From contig LCFW01000004.1 in NCBI GenBank assembly GCA_000999315.1, forward strand, positions 5,540 to 69,539: DNA of 64,000 nucleotides, written 5' to 3'. This document shows positions 8-9,672 of this stretch, in pieces. This stretch comes from Candidatus Peregrinibacteria bacterium GW2011_GWF2_43_17. Lineage in GTDB: Bacteria > Patescibacteriota > Gracilibacteria > UBA1369 > UBA12470. The notes below the pieces were generated by a model, which was not told the DNA's origin, searched no databases, and saw nothing but the letters and a program-made list of their open reading frames with translations. How positions within the stretch are numbered: position 1 is the first letter of the stretch; each line of letters opens with the position of its first letter. The translations under genes and the position numbers were made by a program.

Positions 8-1030
8 GTGAACTTAGATGAACCAAACGACCTTGCATACGCAATAGGAGTCATGACCGAAGCGATCAAGTACTTCAACAAACACATCAAGGAAAACAAA
101 ATAAACGAATTATCCACGCCAACAGAAGAAGGAATTTATCATTTATTCCGAACAGCGGCGGGCAAAGGAAAAAGAATGATGACCCCTGACGCATGCGCAC
201 TTTTAAGAATAATGGCGGTTATAGATTTTATTAATAAAAACCCACTACTATCAATACTTCCTCGGGAAAGAGAGCCGGGAACCCCCAATAAAGGATATGT
301 ACTTGAAGCTTTAAGAGAAAAACTTTCCAGCAGAATAAAGAAAGAAGGCAAAAAAAACATATTCTACTCGACTGGAGGCGAAGCCGGAGATACGGGAATC
401 GAATTAATAAGAGTGGAATTAAGAATAAAAGAAAGAGACCGCGTCATCGCGAAGCTACTACACAAACCGGGAAACAAAGAAGAAGCGGTTCTTGACCATA
501 TAGGAGCAAGAATCACCACAAGAACACCTCAAGATGCCATAAAGATCATACACGAAATGTTTTTTCACCCGAGAAACGCAATATTCCCCGACATAAACAT
601 AAGAGTGGGACAAAGCAAAAACAAAATAATAAATATAGCCATATTACGTTCGGCAACACAAGGAGACCCGAAAGCCATAGAAAGCTTCATGACGGCGATA
701 GCGGAAGAAACAATAGACCATGAAGAATTGACAACCATCGAAGATGTCCCAGATCAACACAACGGACACTCATCAAGAAAATATAGAGCAATACACATAA
801 CAGTAGATATTCCTATAAGAACCGACCATGGCATAATATTATTCCCTATAGAACTGCAATTCCTCGACATACAATCAAGAATAACAAACGAACAAGAAGC
901 ATCGCATGAAGGATATGTCGCAAGACAAATGGACGCGGTAAGTAAAAGGTTATTAAGCAGTAATTTATTATCAGAATTCACAAAAGAAAGAAAAGATGGG
1001 AAAAAGAAAGCTACCGCCTTATCCTCCTAA
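8..1030 (+). CDS. RelA/SpoT-domain (alarmone-synthetase-like nucleotidyltransferase) protein, possibly 5'-partial
   Basis: The C-terminal half carries synthetase-type motifs DHIGARITT, KYRAIHITV and IELQFLDIQSRITNEQEASHEGY. The frame is open to the window edge and the first in-window start is GTG at 8. No HD hydrolase domain was seen. Confidence 0.5.
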   Translation: MNLDEPNDLAYAIGVMTEAIKYFNKHIKENKINELSTPTEEGIYHLFRTAAGKGKRMMTPDACALLRIMAVIDFINKNPLLSILPREREPGTPNKGYVLEALREKLSSRIKKEGKKNIFYSTGGEAGDTGIELIRVELRIKERDRVIAKLLHKPGNKEEAVLDHIGARITTRTPQDAIKIIHEMFFHPRNAIFPDINIRVGQSKNKIINIAILRSATQGDPKAIESFMTAIAEETIDHEELTTIEDVPDQHNGHSSRKYRAIHITVDIPIRTDHGIILFPIELQFLDIQSRITNEQEASHEGYVARQMDAVSKRLLSSNLLSEFTKERKDGKKKATALSS

Positions 1031-1709
1031 CTTCGTCCGCAACCTCCACCAAATACGCCGGCTCATTTCTCTCTCCCCTATGACTTTGAGGCGGCAGGAA
1101 CGGGCAATCGGTCTCCAATACAAATAAATTCTCGGGGGTCTTGGCAACAACCTTACGAAGCTCTTCATTTTGAGGATAAGTAACAGTCCCTCCAAACCCA
1201 AGTATCCACCCCCTCTTCCAAGCCATTTCGGCAAATTCAAGATCCTCGTTAAAACAATGCAAAGTAACTCGCTCCACTCCGGATTCAACCAAAATATCAT
1301 AAACATCTCTTGCCGACTCCCTCGCATGCACACACACAGGCAACCCAACTTGCTTAGCCAATTCCAACTGCTCTCGAAAAGCTTTTTCCTGCACCTCTTC
1401 AGACACCCTCATATGATGATAATCCAACCCAATCTCTCCTATACCAACCACTTTGGGATCTTTCGCTTGAACAAAAAATTTGCTCGCTACCTCCGAAGAC
1501 CACTTATCGGCATCGCTCGGATGCACGCCAATCATCGCCTCAATACAATCATATTTATGCGCCAACCCAACACATTTCATCGAAGACTCAAAATCACACC
1601 CGGGACAAATCATTTTCGTAACTCCGACAGATAATGCCCTCTTTATAACCTGATCTCTATCTTTATCAAATTTATGGAAATCCAAATGTGCGTGAGTATC
1701 AATCAACAT
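1011..1709 (-). CDS. tatD: TatD-family metal-dependent hydrolase/DNase
   Basis: N-terminal MLIDTHAHLDF (HxH metal motif), GEIGLDY and VHAR motifs. At 232 aa the length is typical of TatD/YcfH. Confidence 0.85.
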   Translation of the reverse strand: MLIDTHAHLDFHKFDKDRDQVIKRALSVGVTKMICPGCDFESSMKCVGLAHKYDCIEAMIGVHPSDADKWSSEVASKFFVQAKDPKVVGIGEIGLDYHHMRVSEEVQEKAFREQLELAKQVGLPVCVHARESARDVYDILVESGVERVTLHCFNEDLEFAEMAWKRGWILGFGGTVTYPQNEELRKVVAKTPENLFVLETDCPFLPPQSHRGERNEPAYLVEVADEVRRIRR

Positions 1710-1714
1710 AACTA

Positions 1715-1744
1715 TTGACTTTAAACCGCAAACAAAACTACACT
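1715..1744 (+). promoter_or_regulatory. Candidate sigma-70 promoter for the aro leader (TTGACT-18 nt-TACACT)
   Basis: TTGACT at 1715-1720 and TACACT at 1739-1744. It lies about 24 nt upstream of the leader-peptide ATG. Confidence 0.35.
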
Positions 1745-1767
1745 AAGAACATAATTCAAACAACTTC

Positions 1768-1836
1768 ATGCAAAAAGTAAGCAAACAACTCGTCGGACAA
1801 TTCTGGGCTTACTTTTACTTTACCCTAAAAGCATGA
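1768..1836 (+). CDS. Aromatic-rich leader peptide MQKVSKQLVGQFWAYFYFTLKA (22 aa)
   Basis: The ORF runs from ATG 1768 to TGA 1834-1836 and is too short for the ORF track. Six of seven consecutive codons (1801-1821) encode Phe, Trp or Tyr. It lies directly upstream of alternative hairpins and of the DAHP synthase gene. No obvious Shine-Dalgarno sequence. Confidence 0.6.
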   Translation: MQKVSKQLVGQFWAYFYFTLKA

Positions 1837-1872
1837 GGTAAGAACTTTTATAAGTATATGGTTCCCTCATGC
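1831..1872 (+). promoter_or_regulatory. Antiterminator hairpin of the aro attenuator
   Basis: GCATGAGG (1831-1838) pairs with CCTCATGC (1865-1872) over 8 bp. The 5' arm overlaps the leader stop codon. The 3' arm is shared with the terminator stem, so the two structures are mutually exclusive. Confidence 0.55.
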
Positions 1873-1900
1873 AAGCAAGATGAGGGTATTTTTATTTTTT
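1864..1900 (+). terminator. Intrinsic terminator inside the aroF 5' leader
   Basis: CCCTCAT (1864-1870), 9-nt loop, ATGAGGG (1880-1886), followed by TATTTTTATTTTTT. It lies 105 nt upstream of the aroF ATG. No plus-strand gene ends nearby. Confidence 0.65.
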
Positions 1901-2005
1901 AACCAAAAACAACCATGGAAACGATCGCGACGAAACTATTTGCACCTGTAGAATTCAAGAGGTATCTTTATCGACGCTAAAACACCACCATTAACCAATA
2001 AAAAT

Positions 2006-3034
2006 ATGATCATAGTAATGAAAAGTCATGCTCCAAAAGAGCATATCGAACACATCATAAGAGAACTCTCGGCACAAAAACTCAAACCCGTCCCTTTATA
2101 CGGCACTGAACGCACGGTAATCGCCGTAATCGGAGATGAACGCAATCTGGACATAAATCACCTTCGCGCACTTCCAAGCGTCAGCAACGTAATGCCCGTA
2201 CTCAAACCTTACAAACTTGCCGCACGCGAAACGAAACAAGAAGATACGATCATAGAAATCAAAGGGGTGAAAATCGGAGGAACAGAACTTTCAATCATGG
2301 CGGGACCATGCAGTGTCGAAAGCCAAGAGCAAATGAGCTTAACTGCACGAGCAGTCTCAAAATCAGGAGCAAAAATCTTAAGAGGTGGAGCTTTCAAACC
2401 AAGAACAACCCCATACTCCTTCCAAGGACACGAAGAAAAAGGCCTGAAAATGATCAGAAAAGCCGCCGATGAAAACAACATGCTTGTAATCACGGAAGTA
2501 ATGGACGCAAGCCAAATAGACGTCATTCTGAAATACGCCGACATCCTCCAAGTTGGAGCCAGAAATATGCAAAACTTCACACTTCTAAAAAAACTTGGGA
2601 AAATCAAGAAACCGGTCATGCTCAAACGCGGACTTTGTGCGACACTGAAAGAGTTCTTGCTCGCCGCCGAATACATCCTGGCAGGAGGAAATCAACAAGT
2701 CATCTTGTGCGAACGCGGCATTAGAACTTACGAAGATGATATGAGAAACACGCTTTCGATAGGCGCTGTCGCACGAATAAAAGAGTTAAGTCACCTGCCA
2801 CTTATAGTAGACCCAAGCCACGCAACGGGTATGGCAAGCCTTGTTTCACCGGTTGCCTTGGCCGCAGTAGCCGCGGGAGCCAACGGACTCATGATAGAAG
2901 TTCACCCAAATCCCACAACTGCACTAACCGACGGTGATCAATCCATCACACCGGAAGCATTCGAAAACATGATGGCAAAACTCAACCTCGTTGCGGTTGC
3001 GGTGGGGAAAGAACTTCCAAATAAAAAACTATGA
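2006..3034 (+). CDS. aroF: 3-deoxy-7-phosphoheptulonate (DAHP) synthase, type I-beta with N-terminal ferredoxin-like regulatory domain
   Basis: 342 aa. It shows a Thermotoga-type architecture: an N-terminal domain of about 70 aa followed by a KDO8PS-like barrel ([35 protein letters not shown]). Confidence 0.9.
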
Positions 3035-3969
3035 CCACCCACATCGAAAACCTGGCATCGACATTAAAAAAACTCCCCTACAACCGTTATTGCGTTATAA
3101 CCGATAAAAACGTCTATAAGCATTACGGCAAATTTTTGCACAAATTCGATCTAATTATCAAAGAACCCGGCGAGAAACTAAAAACACTCGCCAACATCGA
3201 AAAAACGGCAAAGAAACTCATAAAACTTGGACTGGATCGAGGAAGTTGCCTGATCGCAGTCGGAGGAGGAGTTATAGGGGATTTTACAGGGTTCCTCGCA
3301 TCAATTTACATGCGAGGAATTCCTTACATACAGGTTCCGACAACACTTCTCGCAATGGTAGACTCAAGCGTAGGCGGGAAAACGGGTGTGAATCTCTCAC
3401 TTGGTAAAAATCTGCTTGGGACATTTTATCAGCCCGTATTGACACTCTCATATCCCGAAACTTTGCAAACACTTTCGTTAAAAGAATTGAAAAATGGCAT
3501 AGCCGAGTCAATCAAGCACGCTTGCATCGGAGATAAATCGCTATTCGGATTTTTAGAAAAAAATCACGAAAAGATTCTGGCAAAAGATCCTGCGACACTG
3601 AACAAATTAATTACTCAATCTTCGGCTATCAAACTAAAAATAACGGGAAAAGACGAGCATGAAAAAGGCGTACGGATGTTTCTCAATTACGGTCATACTA
3701 TCGGACACGCAATAGAACAAGCTTCCAACTATGAATTAAGCCACGGAGAAGCGATTTCAATCGGAATACACCAGGTAAATTTATTCTCAAAATCACCGGA
3801 AACAAAACGCATTGAAAATCTCCTAAAGCTATACGATCTACCTACAAAAATCCCTTCCAATTTAAAGAAACAAGAAATCGCAAAAATCATAAAAACTGAC
3901 AAAAAAAAATTTAAAGGGAAATTAAGATTCGTAACAGTTCGAAAAATAGGATCAGCAACGATCATTTAA
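3031..3969 (+). CDS. aroB: 3-dehydroquinate synthase
   Basis: GGGVIGDFTGFLASIYMRGIPYIQVPTTLLAMVDSSVGGKTGVN and HGHTIGHAIE motifs. ATGA overlap with aroF. Confidence 0.9.
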   Translation: MTTHIENLASTLKKLPYNRYCVITDKNVYKHYGKFLHKFDLIIKEPGEKLKTLANIEKTAKKLIKLGLDRGSCLIAVGGGVIGDFTGFLASIYMRGIPYIQVPTTLLAMVDSSVGGKTGVNLSLGKNLLGTFYQPVLTLSYPETLQTLSLKELKNGIAESIKHACIGDKSLFGFLEKNHEKILAKDPATLNKLITQSSAIKLKITGKDEHEKGVRMFLNYGHTIGHAIEQASNYELSHGEAISIGIHQVNLFSKSPETKRIENLLKLYDLPTKIPSNLKKQEIAKIIKTDKKKFKGKLRFVTVRKIGSATII

Positions 3970-3970
3970 T

Positions 3971-5140
3971 ATGTCTAAAATACTCATACCCGGATCCAAA
4001 AGCTTAATGGCTCGCGCCTTAATTTTAGCCAGCATCCGCAAAGGCAAAACAGCAATTAATAATCCACTCATCTGCGAAGACTCTAAAAACCTGATAAAAG
4101 CTCTCCGGAATCTCGGCATCAAGATTGAACAAAAAAATAATTCGCAAATCACCGTTTACGGCTTAGGCAAAACACTTAAAGCCCCACCAAAAAACCTAAA
4201 TATTGGTAATTCCGGCACGGCGATAAGATTTTTAATCCCCATACTCGCAACCCAAAATTTCACATCACGCATCACGGGTAACCCACAAATGCAAAAACGC
4301 CCAATGCACGACATCATCGAAGCTCTGCAAAAAATCGGGATAAAAATCACATCGCAAAACGGCTACCCACCGCTAACCATATACGGCAACCCCAAAATCC
4401 ATCCAAAAGAAATTCCGATAAAAGGTAACGTAAGCAGTCAATTCATATCGGGACTTCTGATGGCCGCTCCCCTATTCAACAATCCGAAAATAAAAATCAT
4501 CGGCAACGTCGTCTCCAAGCCTTATATCGAGATTACCAAGGAAATTATCAGAAAATTCGACTCGCCATACACAATCGAAACGGACGCCTCCAGCGCAAGT
4601 TACTTCTTCGCACTTGGAGCCCTGGGCTTCAAAATAAAAGTCTTAAACATATCGAGAAAAAGCTTACAAGCAGACATCAAACTACTCGATTATCTCGAAA
4701 AAATGAACTGCACGATAGAAGAAGACCGCGAAGGAATTCAAGTCATCGGTCCAACGGAATTACAACCACTCGGCAAAGTTAATCTAAAAAACCTCCCCGA
4801 CTCCGCAATGACACTCGCAACTCTTGCTTGCTTCGCAAATGGAAAAAGCACGCTTACCGGACTAAGCAATTTGAGATTCAAAGAAACCAACCGACTTCAC
4901 GCCCTCAAAACGGAACTCTCGAAAATCGGCGCAAAAGTGAAAGAGTTGAAAGACGGACTTTCAATAGAGGGCACAAACAACTTTAAATCGGCAACAATCG
5001 AAACTTATAACGATCATCGAATGGCAATGTGCGCAGGAGTATTAAAATCGCAAATCCCGGGAATCAAAATCTTAAACTCTTCTTGCATAAAAAAGACTTA
5101 CCCCGAGTTTTGGCAAGATTTTGACAACGCCAACAAATGA
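3971..5140 (+). CDS. aroA: 3-phosphoshikimate 1-carboxyvinyltransferase (EPSP synthase)
   Basis: PGSKSLMARALILA, LNIGNSGTAIRFL and RFKETNRL motifs. At 389 aa it is a compact version. Confidence 0.9.
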   Translation: MSKILIPGSKSLMARALILASIRKGKTAINNPLICEDSKNLIKALRNLGIKIEQKNNSQITVYGLGKTLKAPPKNLNIGNSGTAIRFLIPILATQNFTSRITGNPQMQKRPMHDIIEALQKIGIKITSQNGYPPLTIYGNPKIHPKEIPIKGNVSSQFISGLLMAAPLFNNPKIKIIGNVVSKPYIEITKEIIRKFDSPYTIETDASSASYFFALGALGFKIKVLNISRKSLQADIKLLDYLEKMNCTIEEDREGIQVIGPTELQPLGKVNLKNLPDSAMTLATLACFANGKSTLTGLSNLRFKETNRLHALKTELSKIGAKVKELKDGLSIEGTNNFKSATIETYNDHRMAMCAGVLKSQIPGIKILNSSCIKKTYPEFWQDFDNANK

Positions 5141-6300
5141 TTAAAAAGAACCTAACTCTACTCACTCTCATCCATAGCTTCCAAAGATTCGCAACAAACT
5201 CTTTGGGATTTTTCTGGGCCATATACTTCACGCAAATAGGATTAAGCGGGACGCAATCAGGGATACTATTTATGACACTCACTGTAACAGGAGTACTTAT
5301 AACACTTCCCGGAGGACTACTAAACGACAGAATTCCATCAAAAAGAATAATCCAGCTAGGCCTAATTTTAATGATCATCGAATTTCTCACATTAAGCCAA
5401 ACACAATATTTCCCATTCATCCTCGCAATGTTCTTCATAGGAGGCATCGGAACTAATCTGTACAACATTTCAATGGACAGTTTGTTTTACAAAACCTCGC
5501 AAGGAGAACCACCATCAAAAAGAATAAAAACATATGTCGGTTTTTATCTGCTGGGAGCAGGCATTGGAGTTTTATTCAGCGGTAATATCCTCGAATATAT
5601 AGATTTTCAAAAATATTTAATCGTAACGGCGGGACTGGTTTCGATATTACTCATATTATCCCTTTTATTGCCCAGCACGGAAACTTTCAAATTCGAAATC
5701 GAATCTTATAAAAAAGATATTAAAAAACCACACGTCTTACTTTTCATCGCAATAATATTTTCATTCGCGATACACATGGGATCAGAATTCACATCATATG
5801 GACCATTTCTGAAAGAGACTCTCGGCCTCACATTTTCACAGATGGGAGCATATATGGGAACCGCAATAATATGCATGTTCGCAACGGTAAGATTAACCAA
5901 CAGAGCACTTGAAAAAGGTACCGGCATAAAAACAATAATCACACTCGGATTACTCTGTTCCGGCATAGGCTACTTGATAATGCTTATACCAATAATCCCA
6001 ATCTCGCTTGTCGGCAGAATAATTCATGAAGGAGGCGATGCAATGATGTTTGTTTTCTTATACACGGGCGTTTTGGAATTTTTCAAAAAAGAACGTATCG
6101 GAGGCAATTCGGGTTTAATAACGTTAACACAAACTTCTGCTATCGCACTAAGTTCTTTGGTCTTCGGCCCGCTGGGCTCTTCCTTCGGGAACCAAATACC
6201 GATTATAATCGGAGCGATCACAACTTTGCTCGCAATCATTCTACTCAAAGAGTATGAGCACATCTCGGAAAAACATAGTAATAACGGGAATGCGCGGTAG
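5137..6300 (+). CDS. MFS transporter embedded in the aro operon
   Basis: About 12 predicted hydrophobic helices and an MFS loop motif, GGLLNDRIPSKR. ATGA overlap with aroA, and its 3' end overlaps aroK. Confidence 0.8.
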   Translation: MIKKNLTLLTLIHSFQRFATNSLGFFWAIYFTQIGLSGTQSGILFMTLTVTGVLITLPGGLLNDRIPSKRIIQLGLILMIIEFLTLSQTQYFPFILAMFFIGGIGTNLYNISMDSLFYKTSQGEPPSKRIKTYVGFYLLGAGIGVLFSGNILEYIDFQKYLIVTAGLVSILLILSLLLPSTETFKFEIESYKKDIKKPHVLLFIAIIFSFAIHMGSEFTSYGPFLKETLGLTFSQMGAYMGTAIICMFATVRLTNRALEKGTGIKTIITLGLLCSGIGYLIMLIPIIPISLVGRIIHEGGDAMMFVFLYTGVLEFFKKERIGGNSGLITLTQTSAIALSSLVFGPLGSSFGNQIPIIIGAITTLLAIILLKEYEHISEKHSNNGNAR

Positions 6301-6778
6301 CGGGAAAACAGCTATCGGCCAGATGATCGCCAAAAAATTAAGACGAGATTTCATCGATCTCGATGTTTACATAGAACGCACTGTAAATAAAAAAATAATT
6401 AAAATAGTCGAAGAAAAAGGATGGAATCACTTTCGCGAACTTGAAGAACAAGCTGTCGACAATTTATCTAAAACAAAAAACGCCGTAATCTCAACAGGAG
6501 GGGGAACTTTTATAAACCCGGCAAACGCAAAGAAACTCAAAAAAAACGGTCTCGTCTTATTGCTTACAGCCGACCTGAAAACACTGGAAAAAAGGATCAA
6601 TTTCAGCAGAAAACGCCCTCCTCTCACCAGCCAAAAATCGCTTAAAAAAGAGCTTGAACAAATCTGGAAAGAACGCAAGAAAACCTACCTGAAAAACGCC
6701 GACTTCGTCTATGACAACTCGAGCGACAAAGACCCGGAAGAAAAAGCTGAAGAAATCTTGGAAATGCTACCGGTCTAA
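6254..6778 (+). CDS. aroK: Shikimate kinase
   Basis: P-loop ITGMRGSGKTAIG, DLD and STGGG motifs. 174 aa. Confidence 0.85.
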   Translation: MSTSRKNIVITGMRGSGKTAIGQMIAKKLRRDFIDLDVYIERTVNKKIIKIVEEKGWNHFRELEEQAVDNLSKTKNAVISTGGGTFINPANAKKLKKNGLVLLLTADLKTLEKRINFSRKRPPLTSQKSLKKELEQIWKERKKTYLKNADFVYDNSSDKDPEEKAEEILEMLPV

Positions 6779-8040
6779 CCGTTAATCCGCAGAAGCCCCC
6801 CCTCGAGTCCTTTCTTCCCCAAAACAAAAACCCTATTCCCAACTCCCCCATGCACCTCTGTAAGAGGATTGCCTTTTATGTCTTTAAACTCTTTTACTTT
6901 AATTGAAACAACCGAATCGGGCAAAACAACCTCCAAAACTTCACCAGTCGAAACTCGATTTCTCACATCTACAAGATATTCACCTTTCGAAACCTCTTTC
7001 CCCACTATTCCAACAAACTTCGCTCCTCCTATCGGACTGCTTTTCTCATACCTCATGGAATTTTTACCCAAATCTCCAAATAAAAATCCGGGAGTATAAC
7101 CCCTGGAAGCGATTTTATAAGCTTCATCCATCAAAGACTCATCAAACGGTCGCCCGGCCTTCAAATCCTCAATCGCTTGCCTATAAATCTTACAAACACT
7201 CGCAACATAATAAACTGTCTTGCTTCTACCCTCTATTTTAAACGACGTTATCCCGGCATCCGCCATTTCTTTCAAATAAGGCAACATACAAAGATCTCGC
7301 GAATTCATAATATAAGTTCCATGTTCATCCTCGGAAATCGGCATATATTCACGTGGCCTCATCTCCTCCTCAAGAACAATTTTTTTATTCAGCAAATCGA
7401 CCTTTGGGCCATAAGAAGCCTCTTCAAGCAACTTATATTTAAATCTACAAGCTTGTACGCAAGCACCCTGATTCGAATCCCGAAAACTCATATAATTGCT
7501 AAGCAAACATCTACCGCTGTAAGCCACACAAATCGCCCCATGAACAAAATATTCAAGTTCAATATCTGGAACTTTTTTATGAATTTCTCTCACCTCTTCC
7601 AAATTTAACTCTCTGGATAAAATCACTCTTTTCACACCCTGATCTCGCCAAAACTGCACACTTCTATAATTCACATTATTAGCTTGCACCGACAGATGTA
7701 TTCTCGCCTTCGGCCAAACTTCTTTTATTATCGAAATCACGCCGGCATCCGCCGCAATCAGCGCATCAGGTTTCACCTCGTCTCTAAGCCATTTGATATG
7801 TTTTATAAAAGCCGGAATCTTGCTATTCCTAGGATAAATATTAACCGTCATGAAAAAAAATTTCTTCAGTTTTTTTGCCAAAGCACGACCGCGAACAACA
7901 CTCTCCGCATCAAATTCGGTAGTCTTTGATCTCAAAGAAAAAGCACTCATCCCGACATAACAAGCATCGGCACCATATCTATATGCATACTCAAGTTTCT
8001 GATAATCGCCCGCTGGAGCGACAAGTTCAAGATTTTTCAT
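6775..8040 (-). CDS. Peptidase U32 family protein
   Basis: N-terminal ELVAPAGD..YGADACYVG and a central E..VHGAICVAYSGRCLLS motif, both typical of the U32 (YegQ/RlhA/TrhP-like) family. Confidence 0.85.
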   Translation of the reverse strand: MKNLELVAPAGDYQKLEYAYRYGADACYVGMSAFSLRSKTTEFDAESVVRGRALAKKLKKFFFMTVNIYPRNSKIPAFIKHIKWLRDEVKPDALIAADAGVISIIKEVWPKARIHLSVQANNVNYRSVQFWRDQGVKRVILSRELNLEEVREIHKKVPDIELEYFVHGAICVAYSGRCLLSNYMSFRDSNQGACVQACRFKYKLLEEASYGPKVDLLNKKIVLEEEMRPREYMPISEDEHGTYIMNSRDLCMLPYLKEMADAGITSFKIEGRSKTVYYVASVCKIYRQAIEDLKAGRPFDESLMDEAYKIASRGYTPGFLFGDLGKNSMRYEKSSPIGGAKFVGIVGKEVSKGEYLVDVRNRVSTGEVLEVVLPDSVVSIKVKEFKDIKGNPLTEVHGGVGNRVFVLGKKGLEGGLLRING

Positions 8041-8144
8041 AAAATAGCCTTATTGCAAATAAAGCAGGAAGAATTTAGCACAAGAAACCCGTGATTTACA
8101 ACGACTTTCAACATATAATCTCCACGTACTCTAACTTTAAAAAA

Positions 8145-8453
8145 ATGTCAGACCCAAAATACAAACGCTACGTCACAGAAATGTTCGAACGAAACAGAGA
8201 AAAAATGATGAAATTCATGCTTCTCAATCAAGATTACGGCAAAGACAAAAAAGGCCTGAAAGAACAGTTCGACCAAGAAGGCAAAGAAATCCAGGAAATC
8301 GTAGAAGAATGGATGGGCCGCCTTTGCAAACAGATGGAAAAAGGCCAAAACGGCTCATATTCGGGCAAGCTGGCCGACAAATTTCTACAAGAGGTTGTAA
8401 AATATTTCACCTACTATCATGAAATCGGAATCCAGTTCAAGAAAGGTCGCTAA
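8145..8453 (+). CDS. Hypothetical protein (102 aa from ATG 8145; the track ORF begins at GTG 8091)
   Basis: An open frame with Lys/Glu-rich composition like neighbouring genes. No recognisable motif. Confidence 0.4.
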   Translation: MSDPKYKRYVTEMFERNREKMMKFMLLNQDYGKDKKGLKEQFDQEGKEIQEIVEEWMGRLCKQMEKGQNGSYSGKLADKFLQEVVKYFTYYHEIGIQFKKGR

Positions 8454-9672
8454 CGCGACCGATTCTCGAACCTCTACAATAAGCCGTCCCGCTAGGCGGG
8501 ACACCGCAATCGACTTTCTCGTCATCGGCTCGGGCGCCGCGGGCCTTAATTTCGCGCTATCCGCATCCAAATATGGCAAGGTTTTAGTGATAACCAAGAA
8601 GAAAATTTCCGATTCCGCAACAGAAAAAGCTCAAGGAGGAATTGCCGCAGTCCTAAATAAAAACGATTCGTTCACATCTCATATAAAAGACACACTCGTC
8701 GCAGGCCATTACAAGAACAAAAAATCGGCAGTCGAATATATTATAAAAAAAGGTCCGGCAGTCATCGCACACCTGAAAAAACTCGGAGTGAAATTCGACA
8801 AAGATTTACGCCGCGAAGGAGGACACTCTGCTCGCAGAATTTCTCACGTCGCCGACAACACGGGTAAAGCGATAGAAGACGCCCTCATCAAAGCTGTCAA
8901 AAAAAATCCGAACACCGAGATCCGCGAATACACGAAAGCCTTAAAAATAATCAAGAAAAACGGCTCGGCAATCGGCATAATCGCAAGCGATGAACAAAAA
9001 AATTGCACATACGAAATCCGAGCAAAAGCAATGATTCTCGCAACCGGCGGGATCGGTCAAAAATTCAAATCGACAACCAACCCGGAAATATCAACCGGCG
9101 ACGGCATCGACATGGCAAAAAAAATCGGCACACGCCTTGCCGACATGAATTACATCCAATTTCACCCAACAGTCTTAAACGCTCCGGGAACACCAAAATT
9201 CCTATTAACAGAAGCTCTTCGCGGAGAAGGCGCCAAAATCGTAAACGAAAAAAAAGAACGATTCATAAATGAACTTCTCCCTCGCGACACAATTTGCAAA
9301 GCAATGGAGAAACAGATAAAACAAGGTCATAAAATCTTCCTCGATTTCACGCACAAAAAAGCCTCTTACACCAAAAAAGCTTTTCCATACGTATATAAAA
9401 ATCTTAAAAAATACGACTTCGATCTGACAAAAGACCTTATCCCAATCGCACCAGCACAACACTATCTCTGCGGAGGAATCGCAGTTGACCTACAAGGCAG
9501 GACATCCATCCCGGGATTATATGCATACGGCGAAACAGCAAGGACCGGCCTTCATGGAGCAAACAGACTTGCATCAAATTCACTGTTAGAAGCAATTGCC
9601 ACAACTATGGAAACGCCAAACGGGATAGTCCGATATTTGTCTTCAAACCCTCTCGAATTTCGCACAAAATAA
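8419..9672 (+). CDS. nadB: L-aspartate oxidase-like flavoprotein, C-terminally short
   Basis: DFLVIGSGAAGL (FAD), AQGGIAAV, EGGHSARRI, TTNPEISTGDG, QFHPT, EALRGEGA and HGANRLASNSLLE motifs. The ORF stops about 25 aa after the last motif, so the usual C-terminal helical domain of about 90 aa is absent. Confidence 0.8.
   Translation: MKSESSSRKVANATDSRTSTISRPARRDTAIDFLVIGSGAAGLNFALSASKYGKVLVITKKKISDSATEKAQGGIAAVLNKNDSFTSHIKDTLVAGHYKNKKSAVEYIIKKGPAVIAHLKKLGVKFDKDLRREGGHSARRISHVADNTGKAIEDALIKAVKKNPNTEIREYTKALKIIKKNGSAIGIIASDEQKNCTYEIRAKAMILATGGIGQKFKSTTNPEISTGDGIDMAKKIGTRLADMNYIQFHPTVLNAPGTPKFLLTEALRGEGAKIVNEKKERFINELLPRDTICKAMEKQIKQGHKIFLDFTHKKASYTKKAFPYVYKNLKKYDFDLTKDLIPIAPAQHYLCGGIAVDLQGRTSIPGLYAYGETARTGLHGANRLASNSLLEAIATTMETPNGIVRYLSSNPLEFRTK

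Follow-up and report, generated by a model that had tools for sequence, protein, structure and literature searches.

The operon for DAHP (3-deoxy-D-arabino-heptulosonate 7-phosphate) synthase of Candidatus Peregrinibacteria bacterium GW2011_GWF2_43_17 is preceded by a short open reading frame (ORF) with a run of Phe, Trp and Tyr codons, and by RNA segments that can pair either as a terminator or as an antiterminator. We studied this leader within a 64,000-nt stretch of contig LCFW01000004.1, called the window below, to which all positions refer. Judging from its sequence and from folding models, the leader is very probably a transcription attenuator of the ribosome-mediated, leader-peptide type, with the common shikimate-pathway operon under its control. 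This interpretation was put forward in a first-pass annotation made from the letters of the DNA; it now draws support from conservation, from folding and from a model of ribosome masking, and it builds on sequence elements, mutually exclusive folds and a conserved geometry that can be observed directly in the window and in its relatives. The features of the leader are the following:

1715-1744, + strand: candidate sigma-70-type promoter, by motif match, with -35 box TTGACT (1715-1720), 18-nt spacer and -10 box TACACT (1739-1744)
1763-1771, + strand: region 1, ACTTCATGC, over the leader start codon, pairing with region 2
1768-1836, + strand: leader ORF of 22 codons, ATG at 1768 to TGA at 1834-1836, MQKVSKQLVGQFWAYFYFTLKA, from the ORF listing
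1773-1816, + strand: stem A, a hairpin of 10 bp between AAAAGTAAGC (1773-1782) and GCTTACTTTT (1807-1816), -10.8 kcal/mol
1801-1821, + strand: regulatory codon run TTC TGG GCT TAC TTT TAC TTT, coding F W A Y F Y F, codons 12-18
1821-1846, + strand: region 2, the 5' side of the antiterminator, with its core GCATGAGG (1831-1838) over the stop codon and flanks at 1821-1826 and 1842-1846
1831-1838 with 1865-1872, + strand: antiterminator core of 8 bp, GCATGAGG with CCTCATGC
1860-1872, + strand: region 3, the 3' side of the antiterminator, of which 1864-1870 is also the 5' arm of the terminator
1864-1886, + strand: terminator hairpin of 7 bp with a 9-nt loop, CCCTCAT (1864-1870) with ATGAGGG (1880-1886), -9.4 kcal/mol
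1880-1900, + strand: region 4, consisting of the terminator 3' arm ATGAGGG (1880-1886) and the U-tract TATTTTTATTTTTT (1887-1900)

The 22-codon ORF, with its F-W-A-Y-F-Y-F at codons 12-18, lies exactly where the first-pass annotation had placed it. Six of the seven consecutive codons in this run encode F, W or Y, residues that together account for 8.6% of codons in the genes of the window. Such a run by itself is not rare, as the 64 kb, translated in six frames, contain 7 places at which at least six of seven codons are F/W/Y. Its TGA is a normal stop codon, which also ends 9 of the 51 genes of the window, that of DAHP synthase included, and which serves as a stop in relatives too. A short 5' ORF enriched in codons for the end products of the pathway is thus found here, and the same holds for 11 other lineages.

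Folds were compared by minimum free energy (MFE), hairpin and duplex energies over the approximately 150 nt from the inferred transcription start to the U-tract, almost half of which is ORF. Stem A, the antiterminator and the terminator with its T-tract are all present in the DNA as the first-pass annotation had described them; what it had missed is an additional 1:2 anti-antiterminator helix, and it had taken the antiterminator to be shorter than it is. The 1:2 helix comprises 9 bp between 1763-1771 (ACTTCATGC) and 1831-1839 (GCATGAGGT), encloses the entire leader ORF and is part of the MFE structure; its duplex energy of -13.9 kcal/mol is equalled by 1 of 500 shuffles in the window. The antiterminator extends beyond the 8 bp of its core by pairing of 1842-1846 with 1860-1864 and of 1821-1826 with 1883-1888, and owing to these flanking helices the extended form captures both arms of the terminator. 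Regions 1 and 3 (CTTCATGC and CCTCATGC) are near-duplicates, as are regions 2 and 4 (GCATGAGG and GATGAGGG), and stem A spans codons 2-16 of the leader, with a 3' arm that codes for Ala-Tyr-Phe. At the sequence level, an intrinsic terminator therefore separates the leader ORF from the first structural gene; 14-nt segments with at least 11 T, for comparison, number only 13 on this T-poor strand. The antiterminator is mutually exclusive with this terminator and competitive in energy, the extended antiterminator reaching -20.9 kcal/mol as compared to -9.4 kcal/mol for the terminator. For the whole leader (1751-1900), the conformer combining 1:2, stem A and 3:4 amounts to -32.3 kcal/mol and that combining stem A with the extended 2:3 helix to -33.5 kcal/mol, so that the terminator is competitive, as one of the checks named in the first-pass annotation had demanded. 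The fold of 1750-1905 has a z-score of -2.81. Near-isoenergetic conformers are what one would expect of a switch whose state depends on the ribosome and on folding order.

From these elements and the folding model we infer a course of events that involves leader translation, termination in vivo, a response to tRNA charging, pausing at stem A and a kinetic order of folding. Transcription would start about 16 nt upstream of the leader ATG, and a ribosome would translate the 22 codons while the polymerase makes regions 2, 3 and 4. With Phe-, Trp- and Tyr-tRNAs all charged, the ribosome would arrive at the TGA and cover region 2 (1831-1838), whereupon 3:4 could pair, and hairpin and U-tract would terminate transcription at approximately 1890-1900, keeping the operon off. 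If any one of the three charged tRNAs were scarce, the ribosome would stall in codons 12-18 (1801-1821) and leave region 2 free; together with its flanks, free region 2 would then seize both terminator arms, permitting read-through and the production of DAHP synthase, aroB, aroA and aroK. In an untranslated leader, region 1 (1763-1771) would pair with newly made region 2 and, as an anti-antiterminator, favour termination. Termination would consequently depend on three inputs, namely enough Phe-tRNA, enough Tyr-tRNA and, in leaders with a TGG codon, enough Trp-tRNA, and stem A may serve as a polymerase-pause or synchronisation hairpin that is melted by the first ribosome.

The conservation of this arrangement was analysed in the upstream DNA of DAHP synthase homologues 59-90% identical to that of the window, supplemented by one DNA-pattern scan of metagenomes, which returned 4 true matches, among them L101 as a new variant, and 3 chance matches (L103-L105). 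At the equivalent site, an ATG-started upstream ORF (uORF) with an aromatic run occurs in 11 further distinct lineages, giving 12 leaders with that of the window; since L101 ends at a contig end before the terminator, the complete set comprises 11, the window and 10 relatives. The leader peptides of the relatives read:

L101: MQKVSNNRLLQHNAYFYFTLKA
L085: MQTLRSQFAFYFYFNPLA
L088: MQKVSQNLPFVWAYFYFTNF
L090: MQKVSRNFWATNAYFYVLK
L092: MQKVSQNQNFFGAYFYFARF
L095: MREVSQQLGLNSTFWAYFYFTRF
L097: MNTKKSPSLSKNTGIQSWAFTYFYFYSRG
L099: MQNTQPSAAVSQKQHVQSWGFSYFYYFTRA
L108: MNMTAQKWGFEYFYFPSP
L109: MFASKSFQFWAFYYFPLNT
L110: MNSKSLQTAAFNFFQKFWAFGFAYSFIKA

Length (18-30 codons) and N-terminal sequence vary freely among these leaders, the aromatic run and the reading frame are kept, and within the run TAC/TAT and TTT/TTC are exchanged synonymously among relatives. 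Phe and Tyr codons are found in 12 of 12 leaders. A hairpin followed by a T-run is present in all ten complete relatives, with hairpin energies of -5.8 to -13.9 kcal/mol. The small ORF, its F/W/Y run and the hairpins, whose conservation the first-pass annotation had named as a check, are hence kept in 11 lineages, ten of them complete with terminator. The stems are almost invariant within the clade of the window (clade A) and have different sequences in other clades, with the same architecture. A cross-clade MAFFT alignment of the whole switch put the stems out of register and was not meaningful, so lineages were folded independently and set against shuffle controls. Examples of the stems outside the window are:

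L097 and L099: helices AGGAACTT/AAGTTCC and GGGAAC/GTTCCC
L109: helix ACCTGAGG/CCTTAGGT and terminator GTCCCTTAGGT...ACCCAAGGGAC
L108: helix TGAGGG/CCCTCA

Not all helices are equally widespread. Both arms of stem A are kept in L088, L090, L092, L095 and L101; the stem is absent in L085 and, by sequence inspection, also in L097, L099 and L108-L110. The 1:2 pairing beats most shuffles in L085, L088, L090, L092 and L108 (7-19 of 500 as good) and less clearly in L095 (50 of 500), and in L097, L099, L109 and L110 it is absent according to the same comparison of duplex and shuffles. As it is missing from some lineages, the 1:2 helix is an accessory rather than a core feature.

The geometry of leader and switch is more uniform. 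Wherever the switch is complete (11 of 11 lineages), the antiterminator has its 5' partner inside or next to the leader stop, at -16 to +9, and in 9 of the 11 the scored aromatic run ends 9-12 nt before the stop; L088 and L092 have a further Phe as their last codon. The 5' arm of the antiterminator thus contains or adjoins the stop codon, and the regulatory codons are so far upstream that a ribosome stalled on them would leave this arm free. We modelled the ribosome as masking the mRNA to 12 nt past the first base of the A-site codon and calculated the Boltzmann probability of the terminator helix, P(terminator), for the remainder. A ribosome whose A site is on one of the central aromatic codons brings P(terminator) to about 0-0.05 in most lineages, as compared to 0.44-0.96 across lineages for one that has reached the stop codon. 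For the window, the values were 0.0005-0.009 from F12 to Y17, 0.19 at F18 and 0.93 at the stop. When the spacer was subjected to dinucleotide shuffling, the observed suppression was matched in 1 of 300 shuffles in the window and in at most 17 of 300 in 10 of the 11 lineages. The exception is L090, where the automatically picked stall codon, W9, falls outside the main run and discrimination is weak anyway. The model thus supports the logic of the first-pass annotation, in which a ribosome at the stop codon leads to termination and one stalled on aromatic codons to read-through, and it suggests that the choice of conformer is set by masking of the stop region.

These data also bear on two rival explanations. 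A chance aromatic-rich ORF might happen to lie beside an ordinary terminator or insulator between the aro operon and the upstream tatD gene; the seven aromatic-rich places in the six-frame translation would allow for this, and a general terminator scan of 1000-9000 was not enriched over shuffles. However, tatD (1011-1709) is divergently oriented and reads away from the element, so that the leader hairpin cannot be its terminator. Moreover, the arrangement is kept where DAHP synthase is only 59-65% identical and the stems differ, and the shuffle controls (1/300 for the spacer and 1/500 for the 1:2 duplex in the window) also speak against coincidence, which we therefore regard as exceedingly improbable. 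Alternatively, a protein, a tRNA or a small molecule could select the hairpin, with the small ORF being untranslated or irrelevant. Mutually exclusive hairpins alone would suit any type of attenuator, and translation of the leader is itself deduced from its sequence. Against such an RNA-only or factor-dependent switch, none of the 12 lineages has lost the ATG frame with its aromatic run, although leader sequence and length have changed greatly, the aromatic codons vary synonymously, and the stop codon is always found in or beside the antiterminator 5' arm. In addition, Rfam yielded no match to T-boxes, riboswitches or known leaders at E values up to 10, and no repeated protein-binding motif, such as triplets of the TRAP type, was seen. 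Specifically, an Rfam 15 scan of the whole window gave tRNA as the sole gathering-level match; a scan of 1650-2050 at E<=10 gave two chance-level matches, on the opposite strand only; and the models Trp_leader, Phe_leader, His_leader, Leu_leader, Thr_leader and leu/phe leader went unmatched. Nor does the leader look like a T-box, as it has no Rfam T-box match and nearly half of its ~150 nt is ORF. We consider a switch of this kind highly improbable.

The Trp codons call for separate consideration. In all nine leaders that contain Trp, it stands before Ala or Gly (WA in seven, WG in two; TGGGC or TGGGG in the DNA, with TGG GCT at 1804-1809 of the window). This exceeds the needs of a pure codon-starvation sensor, and could have a cause at the level of the RNA or of the peptide. 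Together with the order W-[AG]-[FY]...YFYF, which is repeated across clades, it makes it conceivable that the leader works in the manner of TnaC, arresting as a nascent chain in the ribosome exit tunnel in response to free aromatic amino acids rather than simply to tRNA charging; the same hairpins would then turn the stall into read-through or termination. However, L085, L092 and L101 do without Trp, the spacing of the run is variable, the N- and C-terminal parts of the peptide are unconserved, and the conservation of TGGGC/TGGGG can be explained at the RNA level. An abundance-induced stall inside the run would furthermore lead to read-through, which is the wrong sign for a biosynthetic operon. 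An arrest peptide thus seems very unlikely to us, and we retain the codon-sensing attenuator as the preferred interpretation.

Several observations nevertheless weigh against this attenuator or limit how far it can be taken. Its terminator, a hairpin of 7 bp and -9.4 kcal/mol with a loop of 9 nt and an interrupted U-tract behind it, is weak by E. coli standards. Trp codons are missing from 3 of the 12 leaders (L085, L092 and L101). In clade A, the Ala-Tyr-Phe codons double as the 3' arm of stem A, so that their conservation is not purely coding, and since the clade-A stems hardly vary, formal covariation is thin; in a MAFFT alignment of the terminators, 3 of the 6 consensus pairs have changed in a compensatory way, which is weak support. 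The folding model is an equilibrium and not a kinetic one. In it, L090 discriminates poorly, with P(terminator) of 0.08-0.16 on central codons and 0.08-0.44 over the aromatic codons as compared to 0.44 at the stop, and in several lineages the terminator stays unsuppressed when the stall falls on one of the final one to three aromatic codons (0.59/0.93 at Y13/F14 of L085, 0.43-0.72 at F18-F20 of L095 and approximately 0.65 at Y26/F27 of L099). Finally, the model assigns the terminator a probability of only 0.09 at equilibrium when the full leader of the window is untranslated, so that termination without translation would hang on the order of folding.

As to initiation, the TTGACT-18-TACACT promoter candidate of the first-pass annotation was located at 1715-1744. 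It would place the transcription start at about 1751 and leave a 5' untranslated region of about 16 nt devoid of a Shine-Dalgarno (SD) sequence. The clearest cases of a promoter at fixed distance are the clade-A relatives L088 and L092, with TTGACA-17-TAAAGT and a -10 box 23-24 nt ahead of the ATG; a TTGACA/TTGACT box is found at the same place in L085, L090 and L095, where the automatic scan chose other hexamer pairs. The missing SD sequence, which had been raised as a caveat, is of no concern here: an SD-like tetramer precedes only 3 of the 51 genes of the window within 20 nt of their start, as compared to a background of 13.7%, and in such an SD-poor genome its absence before the leader ATG is normal. 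A distance of 7 nt separates a TATAAT box from the leader ATG in L108 (1704-1723) and L109 (1690-1709), and one of 12 nt separates a TATGAT box from it in L110; with -10 boxes at 7-12 nt from the ATG, the leader mRNAs of these three lineages are probably leaderless or nearly so. The leader of L108 is situated directly 3' of tyrA on the same strand. L082 (~2685-2760) and L084 (~1010-1100), from assemblies of the same species including GCA_000999965.1, have an identical leader and deletions of ~119 nt and ~35 nt relative to 1607-1731 of the window, which remove the tatD start and the -35 box. These could be real population variants or assembly artefacts.

Downstream of the leader, the putative regulated operon comprises, by Pfam assignment:

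2006-6778, + strand: putative regulated operon, whole
2006-3034, + strand: DAHP synthase with N-terminal ferredoxin-like domain PF18152
3031-3969, + strand: aroB
3971-5140, + strand: aroA
5137-6300, + strand: major facilitator superfamily (MFS) transporter
6254-6778, + strand: aroK

The pathway represented by DAHP synthase, aroB, aroA and aroK fits the regulatory codons F, W and Y of the leader, and the gene order of the aro operon is the same in relatives. The MFS transporter gene sits between aroA and aroK and overlaps each of them, and in L108-L110 aroA and aroK form a single fused gene. The ferredoxin-like domain mediates feedback inhibition by Tyr and Phe in the DAHP synthase of Thermotoga. 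If it has this role here, genetic and allosteric control would be combined. A DAHP synthase identical to that of the window occurs on groundwater metagenome contigs and in assembly GCA_000999965.1, and its named relatives belong to Candidatus Peregrinibacteria, Patescibacteria and Gracilibacteria, the host of the window being an uncultivated bacterium of the Candidate Phyla Radiation (CPR). Within the 64-kb window, neither further leader-type elements nor another amino-acid biosynthesis operon were found. The GC skew of the + strand is negative in 15 of 16 4-kb bins and the AT skew positive in 15 of 16, with no clear switch.

The region between the terminator and the DAHP synthase start contains a second upstream ORF (uORF2), which is ATG-started and occurs in 10 of 11 lineages (the window, L090, L085, L095, L092, L088, L097, L099, L108 and L109). 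Its peptides include:

1915-1980, + strand: uORF2 of the window, METIATKLFAPVEFKRYLYRR
L090: MDKEKRFTLAPFQKSRYLYSR
L095: ...TFKRYLYCRFWR
L097 and L099: MLHLH...KICLY
L108: ...SQFLY

uORF2 begins within ~45 nt of the start of the T-run; in L092, an insertion shifts it ~130 nt downstream. Near its end it carries the motif T[AGT]TCTTTA[TC], coding for Y/C/F-L-Y, in frame with the ATG at offsets of 48, 48, 48, 63, 78, 78 and 57. Between the window and L095, changes across F-K-R are synonymous, and indels in uORF2 are multiples of three. Against its translation counts an in-frame TGA of L088, which is a stop in this lineage and stands just before the motif, where L092 has TGG. The conserved blocks of uORF2 in clade A could alternatively be read as an internal promoter, TTTGCA-18-TATCTT, which by eye is conserved in clade A only; we consider this less likely and prefer the coding interpretation. 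A hairpin over the DAHP synthase start that uORF2 would govern was rejected, as most bases around this start are unpaired in every lineage, and a start-sequestering hairpin is therefore not the mechanism. Candidate roles of uORF2 are a second sensor, delivery of ribosomes to the SD-less start, or protection from Rho. One could imagine a two-stage aro leader, in which the F/W/Y attenuator is followed by a translated uORF2 whose Y/C/F-L-Y motif acts as a separate sensor or arrest peptide; it could be Tyr-specific, or could govern access of Rho or re-initiation at the start of DAHP synthase, which has no SD sequence. We put this forward tentatively and think it rather unlikely; if true, expression of DAHP synthase would have to pass two gates, each set by translation of a uORF of its own. 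Ahead of the DAHP synthase gene, some lineages also have specific tandem repeats (CCCTATA x3, CTGCAAT x2, ACTTGGT x2 and CTTGCGAC-like x4), located at 1940-2000 in L088, at 1960-2000 in L085 and upstream of 2001 in L092 and L095. In the latter two, small palindromes of the GTTTCGCAAAGCGAAAC type flank uORF2; neither repeats nor palindromes are found in the window.

The usual picture of CPR bacteria, or Patescibacteria, is one of symbionts that are ultra-reduced, synthesise little by themselves and have few regulators. In such a group, a conserved attenuator would imply a functional shikimate pathway that is tuned to the supply of aromatic amino acids, as well as a coupling of transcription and translation that is close enough for attenuation to operate. 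It would also imply that attenuation is workable with leader mRNAs that lack an SD sequence or are leaderless. In the literature libraries searched, we found no work linking Peregrinibacteria or CPR to attenuators or leader peptides. The mechanism itself is textbook knowledge, and the surprise for a specialist is moderate.

To see how far such leaders extend, we considered an out-group of 80 loci from a protein-guided contig scan, in which universal DAHP synthase motifs reached saturation; these loci belong to other phyla and have a DAHP synthase at most 57% identical. Within 300 nt upstream, a uORF with at least five of seven aromatic codons was found in 5 of 80 loci in sense and in none in antisense orientation. 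Two loci behaved like attenuators in the masking model: L018 (Syntrophaceae, ~900-1380, MDRKLNANVSFYGYWFYNYYVS...) and L032 (Phycisphaerales, ~2800-3000, ...RYWGWFGGYFYP..., MKASDLRYWGWFGGYFYPRTHIAS). In both, a strong terminator follows the aromatic uORF shortly before a DAHP synthase gene of the same type, and a ribosome on the aromatic codons suppresses this terminator in the model. For L053 and L075, the masking model gave no support to an attenuator; L058 has no convincing terminator, and L046 no T-run. Given the Syntrophaceae and Phycisphaerales candidates, mixed aromatic leader control of the common pathway may exceed the two cases in the literature.

The classical enterobacterial attenuators comprise trpL, pheL-pheA and hisL as well as the multivalent thr and ilvGMEDA leaders. 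With these the leader of the window shares the 1:2 protector, the 2:3 antiterminator, the 3:4 terminator with U-tract and the location of regulatory codons a few codons before the stop; with the ilv and thr leaders it also shares the sensing of several amino acids. However, it has no likeness to them in sequence or Rfam model, its region 1 lies over the start codon rather than over the regulatory codons, its regions 1/3 and 2/4 are near-duplicates, and the regulated unit is the common pathway, not a terminal branch. The trp and pheA attenuators are summarised in PMC11802643, and PMC8632094 and PMC2659441 cite an old hypothesis of an aroF attenuator in E. coli.

Two described systems come closer. 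In Corynebacterium glutamicum, where this logic has been described experimentally, aroF is preceded by aroR, a Phe-Tyr-Phe leader peptide that responds to Phe limitation, as given in the summary of Neshat et al. 2014 in PMC11802643; the peptide was first noted in PMC4046766. As in the window, a short mixed-aromatic leader stands before an operon that begins with DAHP synthase, and codon stalling raises read-through, as it would in the window. The differences are that C. glutamicum belongs to the Actinobacteria and the window to the CPR/Patescibacteria, the two being compared here by description and not by sequence, and that leaders of the window type have longer runs (5-7 aromatic codons), usually including Trp, SD-independent initiation, which is leaderless in some relatives, and a second conserved uORF after the terminator. 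The other case is uORFC-13-1 of Acholeplasma, a predicted uORF with Phe codons and an intrinsic terminator that occurs exclusively upstream of aroF (PMC8632094). It resembles the leader of the window in its Phe-codon uORF, the terminator immediately after it and the position upstream of aroF. Its own features are a ribosome-binding site, a U-run coding for at least one Phe, and an occurrence in Acholeplasma and unidentified environmental sequences, whereas the leader of the window has a mixed F/W/Y run, no ribosome-binding site and explicit 1:2, 2:3 and 3:4 pairings, a distinction that is again drawn by description, the Rfam 15 scan having given no matching model. In view of these precedents in C. 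glutamicum and Acholeplasma, the novelty that the first-pass annotation had claimed for a mixed aromatic leader on a DAHP-synthase operon was overstated. Rather than a new mechanism, the leader probably represents a known mechanism in a new group of organisms, and one of a kind that is probably under-reported.

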